Positions 10,204 through 16,614 of a stretch of DNA of 18,808 nt are shown here, in pieces (within the stretch, counting starts at the first letter, position 1; the number at the start of each line of letters is the position of its first letter). The notes under the pieces are model-generated. The model was given only the letters and a program-made list of their open reading frames with translations, had not been told where the DNA came from and made no database searches. The DNA comes from a virus (lineage: Duplodnaviria > Heunggongvirae > Uroviricota > Caudoviricetes). A program made the position numbers and the translations under genes. Location: the IMG/VR virus record IMGVR_UViG_2531839477_000015, positions 1 through 18,808 of that record. The stretch is one strand, 5' to 3'.

Positions 10204-10920
10204 TCAAACCAGCCTTAGTTTTGTCTCAATTGCAACGCCTATAATCTTGCAGTTTCCATTGATTGGCACGAGAGGCCATGCAGGATTAAGTCCCTTGAGG
10301 TATTTATTTCCGCCGTCGATTATCAGCTTCTTGAATGTTGCTTCGTTAGAGTCAGAAAGTTTTGCTATGACCAAGCTGCCGTTGATCGCCTCCCTTCCGG
10401 TATCGAAAAGAACGAATGTTCCCTCTGGAATGCTTAACCCAACCGGTGCCGTCATTGAATCACCTTCCACTTTAAGCCAGAACGCATTACCTTGAATATG
10501 CGCGTCAGACTCAAGCCAAACATCTATGTCTTTAATGGTGTATGGTTCGCATGCTTCACACCACGAGCCAGCCTGGATACTGCTTAACACCGGATACCTC
10601 TTTCCTGCTCTGTATTCCCCTGCATACCTTACGTTGGCATCGCTCTTAAGGCTTTCTGCCTGTTCTGCAACCTTGGCAGCAATTGACTGGCTAAAATCAG
10701 CAATTGAGACTTGCAACAGTCGTGCAAAACCAGATGCAACCTCAACGTTTAGCGCGTTTCTGCCATTAAGATAATGCCCTACCGCTCCTTGGGTGATACC
10801 CAGTTCATCCGCGATTGAGTATTGGGTTATCCCCAATTCTTTCTTTTTTGACTCATACAAAGCCTTAAGCCGCTTAGCGTCTTCGAGCTGTTCTGTCGTC
10901 AGTGATTTTTTATTTTCCAT
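10204..10920 (-). CDS. cI: CI-type prophage repressor (HTH + LexA/S24-like autocleavage domain)
   Basis: N-terminus LTTEQLEDAKRLKALYESKKKELGITQYSIADELGITQGAVGHY parallels lambda CI; C-terminal domain with conserved Ser/Lys context (WLKVEGDSMTAP ... TFKKLI); divergent from cro across the operators. Confidence 0.93.
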   Translation of the reverse strand: MENKKSLTTEQLEDAKRLKALYESKKKELGITQYSIADELGITQGAVGHYLNGRNALNVEVASGFARLLQVSIADFSQSIAAKVAEQAESLKSDANVRYAGEYRAGKRYPVLSSIQAGSWCEACEPYTIKDIDVWLESDAHIQGNAFWLKVEGDSMTAPVGLSIPEGTFVLFDTGREAINGSLVIAKLSDSNEATFKKLIIDGGNKYLKGLNPAWPLVPINGNCKIIGVAIETKLRLV

Positions 10921-10997: not shown

Positions 10998-11026
10998 TTG
11001 TTCATGGTTAATAACGGAGAGTGCAT

Positions 11027-11221
11027 ATGATTCGAATGACACTTGCCGATTACGCCAAAATCCATGGACAGGCTAAAGCAGCCAGTGACTTTGGTGTAAT
11101 CCAGTGCGCTATCAGCAAGGCCATTCTGGCAGGCCGTAACATTATGGTTACGGTAAAGCCTGATGGCAGTGTGATTGGAGAGGAGGTTCGTCCTTTCCCA
11201 AGCAACAAGAAAAACAAATAG
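11027..11221 (+). CDS. cro: Cro repressor
   Basis: [33 protein letters not shown]...[13 protein letters not shown] parallels lambda Cro (…YQSAINKAI…EEVKPFPSNKK); ATG 11027 with ACGGAGAG upstream. Confidence 0.85.
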
Positions 11222-11227
11222 TAACAC

Positions 11228-11270
11228 CGCTCTTTAACAGTCATGGTCCTCATTCCCGCCGAAATGCGGG
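11228..11270 (+). promoter_or_regulatory. nutR (boxA CGCTCTTTAACA + boxB CCCGC-CGAAAT-GCGGG)
   Basis: boxA 11228-11239 matches the boxA consensus; boxB hairpin 11255-11270; located 7 nt after the cro stop. Confidence 0.75.
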
Positions 11271-11329
11271 AATACAACGCGCATCAGTTGGTGCGCATAA
11301 CTTCTTATTTGTTAAGGAAATACTTACAT

Positions 11330-11608
11330 ATGCAACTTACAAGTACTCGCAAGAAAGCGAATGCAATTACAAGCAACATCCTAAATCGAATTGCTGTACG
11401 TGGTCAGCGAAAGGTTGCTGATGCATTAGGGATCAATGAATCACAAATTTCGCGATGGAAAGACAGCTTTATCCCAAAGATGGCCATGCTTCTGGCTGTT
11501 CTTGAATGGGGAGTTGTTGATGATGAGATGGCGAGACTTGCTCAGCAGGTGGCATCGATTCTCACAAAAGAAAAACGCCCAGCTGTTGGTAGCAGTCTGG
11601 ACGCTTAA
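11330..11608 (+). CDS. cII: CII transcriptional activator
   Basis: Start trimmed to ATG 11330 (upstream AAGGAAATACTTACATATG matches the lambda cII initiation region as recalled); ...SQISRWKDSFIPKMAMLLAVLEWGVVDDEMARLAQQVASILT parallels lambda CII. Confidence 0.9.
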   Translation: MQLTSTRKKANAITSNILNRIAVRGQRKVADALGINESQISRWKDSFIPKMAMLLAVLEWGVVDDEMARLAQQVASILTKEKRPAVGSSLDA

Positions 11609-11668
11609 GCACACTGTGTTACGCCAAGTAACAGGAGTAATTATGCCAGGACAAACCAAGCAAGTAAA
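11567..11668 (-). ncRNA. OOP-like antisense RNA (putative)
   Basis: Minus-strand hairpin CGUCCAG...CUGGGCG + UUUUUCUUUU inside the cII 3' end (plus about 11570-11600), analogous to the lambda oop terminator; possible promoter -35 TTGTCA (plus 11687-11692) and -10 TTTACT (plus 11663-11668). Confidence 0.3.
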
Positions 11669-12047
11669 CACCGGCATAAAGGCCGGTGACAAGTTCGAAA
11701 CCGTATATCCATTTATCTTCGTATGCACAGATTATCAGTCTTATGACGGCAACGTGCATACCGATGAGCGCTGGATTGGCGGTTGTCACAAAAATTATGA
11801 GCCAGCCGATTGTGGTTATGGTGATCAGTGTTTTTACACCGCTGATGCTGAAGGAAAGAGAATTCTTGAGGTTCTGGCAGTGGTGGAAATGCCAGGCAAC
11901 TGGCAGCGCAGAATCATTTATTCGTGCCACCTCATAGAGCCTGAAGGCAAGGAGAGGAAAGGAAGGAAGGCTTACACAGTCACCGAATCAAGGTTTTTAA
12001 AAATGTCTACTGGTTACTTCGCTGATTACGAAGTAGAGGAGGCTTAA
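11643..12047 (+). CDS. Hypothetical Cys-rich protein (134 aa) inserted between cII and O
   Basis: ATG 11643 with AGGAG 5 nt upstream (the track ORF is over-extended into cII); Cys/His-rich segment [40 protein letters not shown]; no family recognised. Confidence 0.6.
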
Positions 12048-12193
12048 TGACAAAACCACTCAGTCCTTACCAGGACAAAATTCACAAACACATACTACGT
12101 GATCGCTTCCTGTCCAGCTTCAAGCAGCCTGGTCGATTCCGGGCTGAGTTGGAAAAAGTGAAGCTGATGCAGAAGGAGAAAGGTCATGAGTAA
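12047..12193 (+). CDS. Small ORF (48 aa), translationally coupled
   Basis: Not in the track. ATG 12047 overlaps the upstream stop (TAATG) with GAGGAGG 5 nt upstream; translation [48 protein letters not shown]; 3' end overlaps the O-like start. Confidence 0.4.
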
Positions 12194-13046
12194 TCTTGCA
12201 ACCGTAACACATTTAAGGCCTTCACAACGGCCTGTGGAGCGTCGTGTGGCAGAAGTTGAAGATGGTTATACCCGTCTTGCAAATGCCCTGTATGAAGAGC
12301 TTATCGGCGCAGATTTAACGAAAAATCAGAGCAAGGTTGCCCACGCCATATGCCGTAAAACATACGGCTACGGTAAAAAGATGGATCGCATCTCTGATAG
12401 TCAGTTAGCTCAAATTACCAGGCTGCCAAGACAGAAGGTAAACAAGGCCAAGAATGAGCTTATCGCGATGAAGGTTATCCTTCGCGAAGGCCAGCAAATC
12501 GGGCCTAACAAGAACATCGAGGAATGGCAAATAGAAGGGTGTCACTACTCTGGTGATAATGTCACTGCATTGGTGACAAAAAGTGTCACCAAAACGGTGA
12601 CAGCGCTGTCACCAAAACAGGGACACACAAAAGAAACTATTACAAAAGAAAAAAGAAATAATAAAAACACTATGTCCGAAAGTGTTCGGACGGAGTGTGA
12701 AAAATCACATGACCGTCACGAAGAAACCGACAAGGCATTCGAGGAAATATTCTGGTGTGCAGGCATGCGGAAAGCCGGGAAGAAAAACGCAGCTTCGGCA
12801 TTCAGAACACAGTTCAGGGAATGGCGTAAAACTACCAGGGGTACGGCAAGCGAGTTTGCCACGATGCTGGCAGAAGACATCGCATGCAGGAATGGTAAGC
12901 AGTTCGGATTCGACAGGTTGTTACCATCGAGCTACCTGAACGGTCAACGCTGGAACGACGAGAAGCCAGAAACTATTCAACCACAATCCAAACCATCATC
13001 CGCAATCACCGTATCGAAAACTGGCTACGTGTTTTTCGACAGGTGA
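12186..13046 (+). CDS. Replication initiator, lambda O-like N-terminal domain with unrelated C-terminal domain
   Basis: N-terminal region [58 protein letters not shown]...GPNKNIEEW parallels lambda O; iterons inside the gene; C-terminal half not O-like. Confidence 0.85.
12551..12672. repeat. Putative ori: iteron cluster plus AT-rich tract inside the O-like gene
   Basis: Six alternating copies of GGTGACA/TGTCACC-type heptamers between 12551 and 12622 (tggtgataa, tgtcactgc, ttggtgacaaaaa, gtgtcaccaaaac, ggtgacagcgc, tgtcaccaaaac), followed by the A-rich tract 12628-12672. Confidence 0.6.
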
Positions 13047-13153: not shown

Positions 13154-13648
13154 ATGATGAGCCTTGAAGTTGGAGAATATATACCTGGTTATGAGGGTAA
13201 ATACTCTGTAACCAAAGACGGTCGTGTTTATTCACATTTAAGAGGCAGGTTTTTGAATCCATCTCCGGATAACAAGGGTTATCTAAGAGTCACTTTGTGT
13301 TCCGATGGGATTCAGAAGACGTTAAAAGTTCATCGTCTTGTAGCTCAATTATTTATCCCAAATCCGTATTGCAAGCCAGAAGTAAATCATATCAACGGCG
13401 ACAAATCGGATAACGCCATTTGGAACTTGGAATGGTGTACCTGCTCAGAGAATTTAAAACATGCTTTTAGCATCGGACTGAAAAGCGCAAAGGGAGTTTT
13501 TAATGGTAGGGCAAAACTATCTGAAACTGATGTGATTGATATCAGGAATTCTGTTGGTATGAAACTAAGCGAACTATCCACTAAATACGGAGTGAGTGAA
13601 ATGCAAATTTCCACAATCCGCAGAGGAAACGCATGGAGGCACCTTTGA
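13154..13648 (+). CDS. HNH homing-type endonuclease (NUMOD4-like N-terminus, HNH_3 core, C-terminal HTH)
   Basis: YIPGYEGKYSVTKDGRVYS...HRLVAQLFIPNP...VNHINGDKSDNAIWNLEWCTCSEN; by-eye AT-rich; sits between the O-like gene and the primase-helicase. Confidence 0.8.
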   Translation: MMSLEVGEYIPGYEGKYSVTKDGRVYSHLRGRFLNPSPDNKGYLRVTLCSDGIQKTLKVHRLVAQLFIPNPYCKPEVNHINGDKSDNAIWNLEWCTCSENLKHAFSIGLKSAKGVFNGRAKLSETDVIDIRNSVGMKLSELSTKYGVSEMQISTIRRGNAWRHL

Positions 13649-15525
13649 GTCCATCAGAACTTAGCGACCTGCTTTGGGCGCAGGTTGACAGGGTGGCTCC
13701 GCACCTGTTGCCAAACGGCAAGAAAGAGGGGCATGAGTGGGTTGCCGGTAACGTCAACGGTGACAAGGGAAACAGCCTTAAGGTCAACCTTAGCGGCAAG
13801 AAAAAATGGGCTGATTTCGCCGAGGGAGACGGCGGTGACATGCTTGATTTGTGGATGGCATGTCGTGGAATTAACCTGCATCAGGCTATGCAGGAAGCGA
13901 AAGCATTTCTCGGTATCAAGGATGACGATCACCATTTCGATGCCAAACGTGAGAAGAAATTCTCCAGACCTGATCGCAAGAAAATCGCCCGCTACGTTAC
14001 CAGGACAGAATCCCATCTTGAGTACCTGCAATCGCGTGGCATATCGCCAGAAGTCGTAAAGCGCTACGAGGTTGTCAGCGGCAAGGTGTGGAATGGAGAA
14101 CGAGAACTGGATGCTCTGGTGATTCCGTACAAACGCGATGGTGAGTTGTTGCAGGTCAAGCGAATCAGCACTGAGCGCTCGGACGGGAAGAAAGTCATTA
14201 TGGCAGAAGGTGATTGCGAACCTTGTCTGTTCGGATGGCAGGCTCTGGACGCTGGCGTGAGGGCGGTTGTACTTTGCGAAGGCGAAATTGATTGTATGAG
14301 CTATGCGCAATACGGCATCTCGGCGTTATCCGTGCCGTTTGGTGGCGGGAAAGGCGCTAAGCAACAGTGGATTGAGTTTGAGTATCACAACCTCGACAGG
14401 TTTGAGGAAATATTCATCTCGATGGACGTTGATGATGTTGGTCGTGAAGCCGCAAGGGAAATCGCAAGCCGACTCGGTGAACATCGTTGCCGTCTTGTTA
14501 CTCTGCCGTACAAGGACATCAACGAATGCCTGATGAACGGTGTTACCGAGGATGAAATCTGGCAGTACATCGGCACGGCATCCTACTTCGATCCTGAAGA
14601 ACTCTACAGCGCGCGAGAGTTTTACCAGGACACTATCAACGCTTTCTACGGCAAGCAGCAGTATCTGTTTAATCCACCGTGGGAATCTCTGGCAGATAAA
14701 TTCCAGTTCCGTGAGGCCGAGTTGACGCTGGTCAATGGTGTGAACGGTCACGGAAAAACGGAGGTTGTCGGGCATATGGCACTTGAGGCAATGCGTCAGG
14801 GGGTGAAGACGTGCATCGCGTCACTTGAGCTGAAGCCTGGTATTCTCCTTAAGCGCCTTACCCGTCAGGCAACGTGCTGCAAGATGCCGCCAGTGCTGGA
14901 AATTGACTCTGCATTTAAATTTTATGACGAAAGACTTTGGGTGTTTGGCCTGACCGGAACGGCGAAATCCGACAGGCTGATCGAAATATTCGACTACGCT
15001 CGCCGCCGATACGGGATCCAGTTATTCATCATCGACAGCCTGATGAAATGTGGCATAGGCGACGATGACTATAACGGGCAGAAGGCGTTTGTTGACTCGA
15101 TTTGCGACTTCAAAAACAAAACAAACTCCCACGTCATTCTCGTTACTCACTCGCGAAAAGGAGACAGCGAAGAAAAACCAACCGGGAAAATGGACGTAAA
15201 AGGCTCTGGAGCGATAACAGACCTGACAGACAACCTTTTCATCATCTGGCGTAACAAGGCTCGCGAGAGAGCGTTACAGAGAGTTCAGAGTGGTGAAAAG
15301 ATGTCAGAGAAGGACGAACAGCTACTGGCATCTCCGGCATCTGTTTTGATGCTTGAAAAACAACGTAACGGCGAAGGTTGGGAAGGTGGCGTCCCGTTGT
15401 TCCTTGACGAGCAATCGCACCAGTTCCTGCAACTTGAATCAGGATCGCCATATAGCTACATCGCCAATATGCCGAAATCGGAATATGACGAGGCGTGGCG
15501 ACAGGAAAACGTGACGGAGTATTAA
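13633..15525 (+). CDS. Bifunctional primase-helicase (Toprim primase + DnaB/SF4-like helicase)
   Basis: 630 aa; Toprim-like VVLCEGEIDCMS; Walker A LVNGVNGHGKTEV; Walker B-like LFIIDSLMK; occupies the lambda P position. Confidence 0.85.
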   Translation: MEAPLSPSELSDLLWAQVDRVAPHLLPNGKKEGHEWVAGNVNGDKGNSLKVNLSGKKKWADFAEGDGGDMLDLWMACRGINLHQAMQEAKAFLGIKDDDHHFDAKREKKFSRPDRKKIARYVTRTESHLEYLQSRGISPEVVKRYEVVSGKVWNGERELDALVIPYKRDGELLQVKRISTERSDGKKVIMAEGDCEPCLFGWQALDAGVRAVVLCEGEIDCMSYAQYGISALSVPFGGGKGAKQQWIEFEYHNLDRFEEIFISMDVDDVGREAAREIASRLGEHRCRLVTLPYKDINECLMNGVTEDEIWQYIGTASYFDPEELYSAREFYQDTINAFYGKQQYLFNPPWESLADKFQFREAELTLVNGVNGHGKTEVVGHMALEAMRQGVKTCIASLELKPGILLKRLTRQATCCKMPPVLEIDSAFKFYDERLWVFGLTGTAKSDRLIEIFDYARRRYGIQLFIIDSLMKCGIGDDDYNGQKAFVDSICDFKNKTNSHVILVTHSRKGDSEEKPTGKMDVKGSGAITDLTDNLFIIWRNKARERALQRVQSGEKMSEKDEQLLASPASVLMLEKQRNGEGWEGGVPLFLDEQSHQFLQLESGSPYSYIANMPKSEYDEAWRQENVTEY

Positions 15526-15602: not shown

Positions 15603-16019
15603 ATGAAAAAACTAACCTTTGAAATTCGATCTCCAGCACATCAGCAAAACGCTATTCACGCAGTACAGCAAATTCTTCCAGACCCAACCAAACCAATCGT
15701 AGTAACTATTCAGGAACGCAACCGCAGCATTCGGCAAAATGCACGCCTTCACGCGATGCTATCTGAAATAAGTAAGAAGGCTACATATCATGGAAAAGCA
15801 AGAAATATTGAGTTTTGGAAGGGGTTATTCGTTTCTGGTTGGCAGATTGCAACCAACCAGCACCCTGAGATTATATCAGGGTTAGAAGGTGAGCTAATAA
15901 ACATCAGAGAGAGTACGGCGACTCTATCTGTAAAAAAAATATCCGAAATAATGGACTACATAGAAGCATATTGTGCCATGAACTCAATTCATCTTAGCGA
16001 ATGGAGGAATTATGATTGA
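15603..16019 (+). CDS. ninB: NinB (Orf-family recombination mediator)
   Basis: MKKLTFEIRSPAHQQNAIHAVQQILPDPTKPIVVTIQERNRS matches the lambda NinB N-terminus as recalled; remainder is a diverged homologue; the track start at 15585 is TTG. Confidence 0.85.
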   Translation: MKKLTFEIRSPAHQQNAIHAVQQILPDPTKPIVVTIQERNRSIRQNARLHAMLSEISKKATYHGKARNIEFWKGLFVSGWQIATNQHPEIISGLEGELINIRESTATLSVKKISEIMDYIEAYCAMNSIHLSEWRNYD

Positions 16020-16614
16020 GGTTTGGGTAGATATCGAAGGAATTCCATTTTATCAGGTTAGCAATAAAGGAAATTTCAGGTCTATTACGAGGGAAATTAC
16101 AGTAACATCAACCAGACAGAGGCCATATAAGAAAATAATTAATGGCACTAGCGTAAAACCATTCAAGTGCAAGTCGACAGGATATCTTCAAATAAAGGTA
16201 TACGGTAAGAAATACAGCGCCCACAGGATAGTTGCGAAAGCATTCTGTACAGGGTTCTGTGATGGCTTGGTAGTTAATCACAAAAATGGGCAAAGAGATG
16301 ACAATAGGGCTGAAAACCTTGAATGGGTATCTCATTCTGAAAACTCAAAGCACGGATATAAACAAAATGGAAGAATACCTATATCGCTAGGTAAATTTAG
16401 TGGTGATCATCCTGCCAGTAAAGCTGTTATTTCTACTGACATGAAAACTGGGGAGGAGGTTTATTATGAAGCAGCTATGGATGCTGTCAGAGAAGGATTT
16501 GATAGTTCGTCAATTAGTCGTTGCTGTAATGGCGAAAGCTCATATCACAAAGGAAGATTCTGGCGATTTGCAAATGAAACAATGAAAGCGAGATGGGGAG
16601 ATCGGGCTGCATGA
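16012..16614 (+). CDS. HNH homing-type endonuclease inserted at the ninB 3' end
   Basis: NUMOD4-like GIPFYQVSNKGNFRS and HNH_3 HRIVAKAF...VNHKNGQRDDNRAENLEWVSHSEN; AT-rich by eye; C-terminal KARWGDRAA equals the lambda NinB C-terminus as recalled. Confidence 0.8.
   Translation: MIEVWVDIEGIPFYQVSNKGNFRSITREITVTSTRQRPYKKIINGTSVKPFKCKSTGYLQIKVYGKKYSAHRIVAKAFCTGFCDGLVVNHKNGQRDDNRAENLEWVSHSENSKHGYKQNGRIPISLGKFSGDHPASKAVISTDMKTGEEVYYEAAMDAVREGFDSSSISRCCNGESSYHKGRFWRFANETMKARWGDRAA

Follow-up and report, generated by a model that had tools for sequence, protein, structure and literature searches.

A probable replication origin with its own iteron class inside the O gene of a lambdoid E. coli prophage, homologous to ori-lambda

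The DNA analysed here, a stretch of 18,808 nucleotides that we refer to as the window, holds a lambdoid early-right operon in the order cI-cro-cII-O-helicase-nin (Table 1). At its left end (1-2489) lie the host gene ybhC and then a tyrosine integrase, and on these grounds we take the window to be an E. coli prophage. It sits at the ybhC locus, in the region that also contains lambda attB. No record covered more than 54% of the window, so that the prophage as a whole is a new mosaic, built around a replication module that is already known.

Table 1. Genes and sequence features in and around the initiator gene (positions in the window).
Feature	Position	Strand	Details
CI-like repressor	10204-10920	-	
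Cro	11021-11221	+	
CII	11243-11608	+	
DUF2740/orf48	12047-12193	+	
Initiator gene O, contains the origin	12186-13046	+	lambda O family, 286 aa; Pfam Phage_rep_O, E = 1.1e-37, aa 20-114
O N-terminal domain coding part (aa 1-118), presumed iteron-recognition module	12186-12539	+	Pfam match aa 20-114
Iteron 1	12540-12558		TGTCACTACTCTGGTGATA; 1 mismatch against the dyad consensus; aligns with lambda ITN1
Iteron 2	12560-12578		TGTCACTGCATTGGTGACA; arms perfect; aligns with lambda ITN2
Iteron 3	12584-12602		TGTCACCAAAACGGTGACA; perfect 7-bp arms, AAAAC centre; aligns with lambda ITN3
Iteron 4	12607-12625		TGTCACCAAAACAGGGACA; 1 mismatch; right half enters the A-rich tract; aligns with lambda ITN4
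Segment common to all mosaic partners, likely crossover zone	12613-12658		overlap of mosaic boundaries
A-rich tract, presumed DNA-unwinding element	12626-12672	+	40-47 bp; 32 A in 47 nt (68% A), 81% A+T
Imperfect inverted repeat I6	12667-12698		ACACTATGTCCGAA / TTCGGACGGAGTGT; 14-nt arms, 86% complementary; adjoins the A-rich tract on the right
O C-terminal domain coding part, presumed primase-helicase-recruiting module	12673-13046	+	near-identical to the ES18 gp59 C-terminus
HNH endonuclease	13154-13648	+	
Primase-helicase, presumed partner loaded at the origin	13633-15525	+	630 aa; Pfam Toprim_2, AAA_25, DnaB_C
NinB, second HNH, Dam, NinX, RusA	from 15585	+	

The initiator gene is, at the DNA level, 99.9% identical to the Sf101 gene annotated 'replication protein O', with the mEp043 gene next at 99.2%. 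Many E. coli chromosomes carry it at 100% identity, and it is present in full length in 170 of 5426 complete E. coli genomes. Its product shares 49% identity with lambda O over amino acids 1-157, and beyond that point no similarity is seen. When amino acids 1-118 were used in a tblastn search, the N-terminal domain emerged as a discrete class, with 13 phage records at 99% identity or more, followed by phiEt88 (59%) and lambda (53%).

Downstream, the primase-helicase gene is 98.5% identical to the Sf101 gene. An insertion of 499 bp (13158-13656), absent from Sf101 and present in 4 of the 120 related loci listed, falls exactly at codons 1-2 of this gene and carries an HNH/NUMOD4 ORF (region 13154-13656). 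The endonuclease, which looks like a free-standing homing endonuclease, takes over the old ATG, and the helicase restarts at 13633 with MEAPLSPSELS... as compared with MTPSELS... in Sf101. A second HNH/NUMOD4 ORF (I-HmuI-like, 16012-16614) lies between NinB and the Dam methylase, in a segment (15728-16584) with no counterpart in Sf101. Sf101 also lacks an extra ORF between cII and DUF2740/orf48 (∼11640-12047, ∼134 aa starting MPGQTK), for which no Pfam match was obtained. Where this ORF begins, the minus strand has an oop-like promoter at 11668-11640, and a terminator-like hairpin is present at 11688-11669.

Within the O gene, four dyad-symmetric iterons begin at codon 119, past the N-terminal and before the C-terminal domain, which is the place that the iterons occupy in lambda. 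A search of the 18.8 kb for TGTCAC-N7-GTGACA returned exactly four sites with at most one mismatch (1, 0, 0 and 1 in order), and the best score in the rest of the window was two mismatches. The repeat finder delimited units of 19-20 nt with start-to-start distances of 20, 24 and 23 nt, which places the iterons about two helical turns apart. The array is not uniform, in that the arms of iterons 1 and 4 each carry one mismatch and the A-tract centre is absent from iterons 1 and 2. None of 200 shuffles produced four sites in any 90-nt span, even when up to three mismatches were allowed, and GGTGACA is present in 8 copies when both strands of the window are counted, where 1.94 (sd 1.54) would be expected, with 4 of the 8 copies at 12572-12613. 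Chance clustering of the repeats is ruled out by the shuffles together with the excess of GGTGACA. A near-iteron with two mismatches, GGTAACGTCAACGGTGACA, was noted at 13747-13765 within the primase-helicase gene, with more GGTGACA copies at 13759 and 13834. We dismissed this site as an additional O target, since ∼0.7 such sites are expected by chance according to our own calculation, and it is probably without meaning.

An earlier note on this DNA, made from the letters alone, had proposed an origin inside the initiator gene, consisting of six heptamers in alternating orientation within ∼70 bp and a 45-bp A-rich tract following them. The repeats are real and lie far beyond chance, as judged by the repeat finder, the consensus search and the shuffles, and the ORF that holds them matches Phage_rep_O (E = 1e-37). 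The six heptamers are also present, as the half-sites of iterons 2-4 (12560-12625); the repeating unit, on the other hand, is a 19-bp dyad iteron, of which there are four. The start given in the earlier note, 12551, splits iteron 1, which had been missed, and the array begins at 12540. The A-rich tract lies where it had been described, directly after the last iteron.

This tract, A-rich on the coding strand, is the part of the window richest in A, the most A-rich 45-mers starting at 12623-12625, and is the second least stable duplex of the window at both 30 bp and 40 bp, more than 3 sd from the mean. It contains two direct repeats, ACAAAAGAAA / ACAAAAGA(A/C)A, ∼15 bp apart (12627-12651; D3 of the repeat finder). 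The same pair is seen in lambda, P22, mEp213, PhiR26_1 and the Yersinia phage, whatever their iteron or C-domain type. To the right of the tract, the imperfect inverted repeat at 12667-12698 travels with the C-terminal module and is kept in ES18, where the differences are not compensatory. It possibly belongs to the origin, an assignment in which we place low confidence. At the equivalent place lambda has an unrelated palindrome.

In lambda, O binds four iterons to form the O-some, and the adjoining AT-rich tract unwinds (PMC7466680, PMC3349717); it is in this tract that the two strands come apart and the helicase is loaded, the origin being activated by transcription from pR (PMC7466680, PMC3349717, PMC3985674). 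The lambda record annotates the four iterons (ITN1-4) at 39034-39118, inside gene O. Window and lambda agree in having four iterons of 18-19 bp with internal dyads, in the spacing of 20/24/23 bp, in AAAAC centres and in the order of the parts. The right half of iteron 4, CAAAACAGGG, is common to both, as is the tract CACAAAAGA.ACTATTACAAAAGAAAAAAGAAA, in which the window departs from lambda CACAAAAGAcACTATTACAAAAGAAAAAAGAAA by one substitution. The arms, in contrast, are TCCCTC/GAGGGA in lambda and TGTCAC/GTGACA in the window, so that 4 of the 6 positions in each half-site differ. The column-by-column alignment to ori-lambda and to the annotated rep_origin of ES18, collinear from the iteron centres through iteron 4 into the A-rich tract, bears out the proposal that the layout is that of lambda ori with another repeat sequence. 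That proposal understated the likeness, insofar as the A-rich tract is itself homologous to that of lambda and nearly identical to it in sequence. The correspondence stops at the C-terminal domain of O, which is unrelated in lambda, and at the downstream gene, which is P in lambda and a primase-helicase gene in the window. Lambda O/P-type initiation, with a P-type loader and a lambda-type C-domain, is thus not what the window encodes. We would accordingly liken the window to ori-lambda at the recognition step and not as an O/P system, and loading of host DnaB through P is presumably not used here.

Other phages combine the same parts differently. ES18, epsilon34 and g341c share with the window the C-terminal domain of O, the right-hand part of the origin (A-rich tract and inverted repeat) and the primase-helicase partner. 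ES18 differs in its lambda-type N-domain and TCCCTC iterons, and the window is the reciprocal module combination; in ES18 gene 59 a rep_origin is annotated as 'similar to lambda ori', and the gene is followed by gp61, annotated as a putative primase/helicase. The PhiR12-type phages share the N-domain, the four iterons and the A-rich tract, identical up to ∼12658, whereas a lambda C-domain, P and ren follow downstream (PhiR12_1 is the annotated example). Judged by its sequence, the PhiR12 type shows that the recognition module would work with another helicase-loading system. P22 gene 18 and its counterpart in phage L likewise encode an O-family initiator with class-specific repeats in its own gene, followed by the ACACAAAAGA tract (PMC8022706). 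Different iterons have been reported for P22 and L within gene 18 (PMC8022706), the half-site of P22 being TTTACC/GGTAAA and its partner the DnaB-like helicase gp12, and phage L having six 11-bp repeats (PMC8022706). The Stx phages 933W and P27 have the lambda-type layout inside gene O, with six lambda-type iterons and an O protein 13 aa longer (PMC7466680), as against four iterons of another sequence in the window.

Two comparisons bear on whether the iterons are matched to the N-domain of O. First, we read the DNA just 3' of the N-domain in 11 loci, representing 9 phage types and 8 distinct half-sites, and each N-domain class had its own dyad-symmetric repeat at the same position in the gene. 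The half-sites were TCCCTC (lambda, ES18), ATCCC(C/T) (Gifsy-1), TGTCACC (window, Sf101, PhiR12_1), TGTTACC (phiEt88), TTTACC (P22, from imperfect dyads picked out by eye), TTACC(T/C) (PhiR26_1), TTAGCC (mEp213 and Yersinia phage 21.09) and GTGCC (PAJU2). The phage with the closest N-domain, phiEt88 (59% identity), also has the closest iteron, one nucleotide off per half-site and symmetric in both arms. In all enterobacterial loci for which the retrieved sequence extends beyond the last repeat, this repeat enters the conserved ACACAAAAGA; PAJU2 has only the related ACACTATAAAGA in its place, and the Gifsy-1 excerpt ends before this point. Secondly, a scan of IMG/VR viral contigs for exact iteron 3 yielded at least 120 contigs, and in 117 of the 120 listed a window-type N-domain is encoded around the iteron, the other 3 being truncated or unrelated; these counts should be interpreted with some caution, as the survey was conditioned on exact iteron 3 and many of the loci are closely related and hence non-independent events. 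One IMG/VR contig showed two TGTCACC-like dyads (ATGTCACCAAAACGGTGACA ... TCGTCACCATAACGGTGACA) and no O-gene match; these may be an unrelated operator, or part of another replicon with a similar site.

Members of the O family bind DNA as winged-helix dimers, a mode of binding that the O protein of the window would be expected to share. Residues 79-92 of O are invariant in the 47 unique N-domains of the clade. N47 and H53 are common only to the clade and phiEt88, and Q83 and K87, both in the invariant block, occur in the clade alone (phiEt88 has S and I in their place). These would be candidate specificity residues. A single-sequence AlphaFold model of the N-domain had a pLDDT of 48.6, too low to use, and a sequence search found no solved structures of O relatives.

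The DNA itself appears to be what is conserved in the array. Over 46 unique array variants, conservation reaches 95-96% in the arms, compared with 75-80% in the centres and 78% in the spacers. The higher conservation of the arms persists when iteron 3, fixed by the search, is left out, and all four copies still have their arms in loci whose N-domain is only about 60-70% identical. It could be argued that the repeats are a by-product of a repeated linker peptide (VT..VTK..VTKTVT), selected at the protein level and with no role as DNA. The region is coding, and V-T dipeptides do recur in the translated linker. The four copies, however, lie in three reading frames (0, 2, 2 and 1) and encode unlike peptides (CH.., VT.., VT.. 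and SP..). It follows that selection acts on the DNA, and the explanation by peptide repeats is therefore excluded for practical purposes. The arm bases are moreover kept at any codon position while the centres vary, the copies in lambda fall in the same frames and encode an unrelated peptide, and the linker peptide is wholly different between classes in which the layout of the DNA dyads is constant. We assign this explanation next to no probability.

A second possibility is that the dyads serve as DNA or RNA hairpins or cruciforms (leftward intrinsic terminators, for instance, or structural elements), and not as protein-binding sites. The strand does fold strongly (-23.3 kcal/mol, z = -5.55), and a consensus scan placed terminator-like sites on the minus strand at 12614-12595 and 12602-12584. 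Such a fold does not discriminate, given that any array of palindromes would fold in this way, and the terminator-like sites number 5, which is within the shuffle expectation of 3.0 (sd 2.1). No known RNA families were found in the window. Hairpin formation would require neither one arm sequence in four copies nor that this sequence should track the class of the N-domain, and the homologous sites of lambda have been footprinted by O (PMC7466680). A purely structural role is, in our judgement, highly improbable, and we retain the reading of the array as a set of O-binding sites.

The type of helicase follows the other end of O. Among the matches listed in the same survey, the window C-domain was combined with the primase-helicase in 55 loci, and with that gene type only, the lambda C-domain with P in 17 loci and the P22 C-domain with gp12 in 13 loci. 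No cross-combinations of C-domain and helicase were seen among the at least 120 iteron-3 contigs. The DNA matches of the O gene locate the boundary between the exchanged parts: the PhiR12 phages match query positions 1-473 (window 12186-12658), and ES18, epsilon34 and g341c match positions 428-861 (window 12613-13046). The overlap at 12613-12658, made up of the right half of iteron 4 and the A-rich tract, is the sole segment common to all module types, and the mosaic partners part ways just past ...AAAAGAAAAAAGAAA. To go by these boundaries, the conserved A-rich unwinding element appears to double as a recombination joint between the recognition and helicase modules. A bolder proposal has two parts. 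The invariant A-rich element would be both the origin core and a selected, universal crossover joint, pairing one recognition module (N-domain and TGTCAC iterons) with at least three unrelated helicase-delivery systems, namely lambda P with host DnaB, the P22 gp12 helicase and the ES18-type primase-helicase. In addition, Q83 and K87 of O would set the single-base difference between TGTCAC and TGTTAC. We offer the two parts together as a tentative proposal, which we would sooner expect to fail than to hold. If true, the reading of Q83 and K87 would amount to a simple recognition code for O-family initiators.

We hypothesize that the locus is very probably the origin from which a lambdoid prophage of E. 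coli starts theta replication, homologous to ori-lambda and belonging to another iteron-specificity class. By homology with lambda, dimers of the N-terminal domain of O would bind the TGTCAC-N7-GTGACA iterons and assemble an O-some-like nucleoprotein complex. Iteron-bound O would then destabilize the adjoining A-rich tract, the predicted unwinding element. Because C-domain type and helicase type always travel together, we infer that, once the DNA is open, the C-terminal domain of O would recruit to it the primase-helicase of the phage itself, which is of the Toprim/DnaB type. This step would take the place of the loading of host DnaB by P in lambda. As in lambda, the origin is probably activated by transcription that runs from pR through cro, cII and O.

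The array might also bind O and yet be a relic, or serve mainly in regulation or incompatibility, through titration of O, autoregulation of O or exclusion of phages with the same origin, and not as a firing origin. Plasmid-borne iterons together with oop are indeed able to inhibit phages with a lambda-type replication region, and the AT-rich tract is not needed for this (PMC3349717). The window is, moreover, a prophage that may or may not be viable, with two HNH insertions in its replication and nin region. These considerations have to be set against the state of the module. The four iterons, the A-rich tract and the ORFs of O and the primase-helicase are all intact, the helicase gene regains a start codon through the HNH insertion, and the near-identity of the O gene and array extends to Sf101 and mEp043, both of which are deposited phage genomes. 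Since the genes are intact and nearly identical to those of sequenced phages, a relic or a purely regulatory role is unlikely, with a small chance of being right, and a regulatory role of this kind would add to origin function and not replace it. An active origin remains our preferred interpretation.

The kind of element, its layout and its modular exchange are textbook lambdoid biology, and no concept is changed by the origin of the window. The TGTCAC iteron class itself was not found in the searchable literature, where a search with the sequence gave only an unrelated schistosome paper, nor did the literature searched contain a biochemically characterized lambdoid origin that depends on a primase-helicase. 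The paper on the Sf101 genome contains no discussion of an origin, and we saw no origin feature in the records of Sf101 and PhiR12_1 or in the single E. coli record that we inspected.

In conclusion, the presented data allow the origin to be annotated with confidence across a common prophage family of E. coli, Shigella and Salmonella. To this family belong Sf101, mEp043, SEN22 and the PhiR12 phages, together with ∼170 of 5426 complete E. coli genomes, in which O is present in full length, and at least 120 viral contigs. Its members form a natural series of domain swaps, in which the iteron type tracks the N-domain of O and the helicase type tracks the C-domain. Such a series could guide work on the specificity of initiators, and on how O-type proteins recruit a self-contained primase-helicase.
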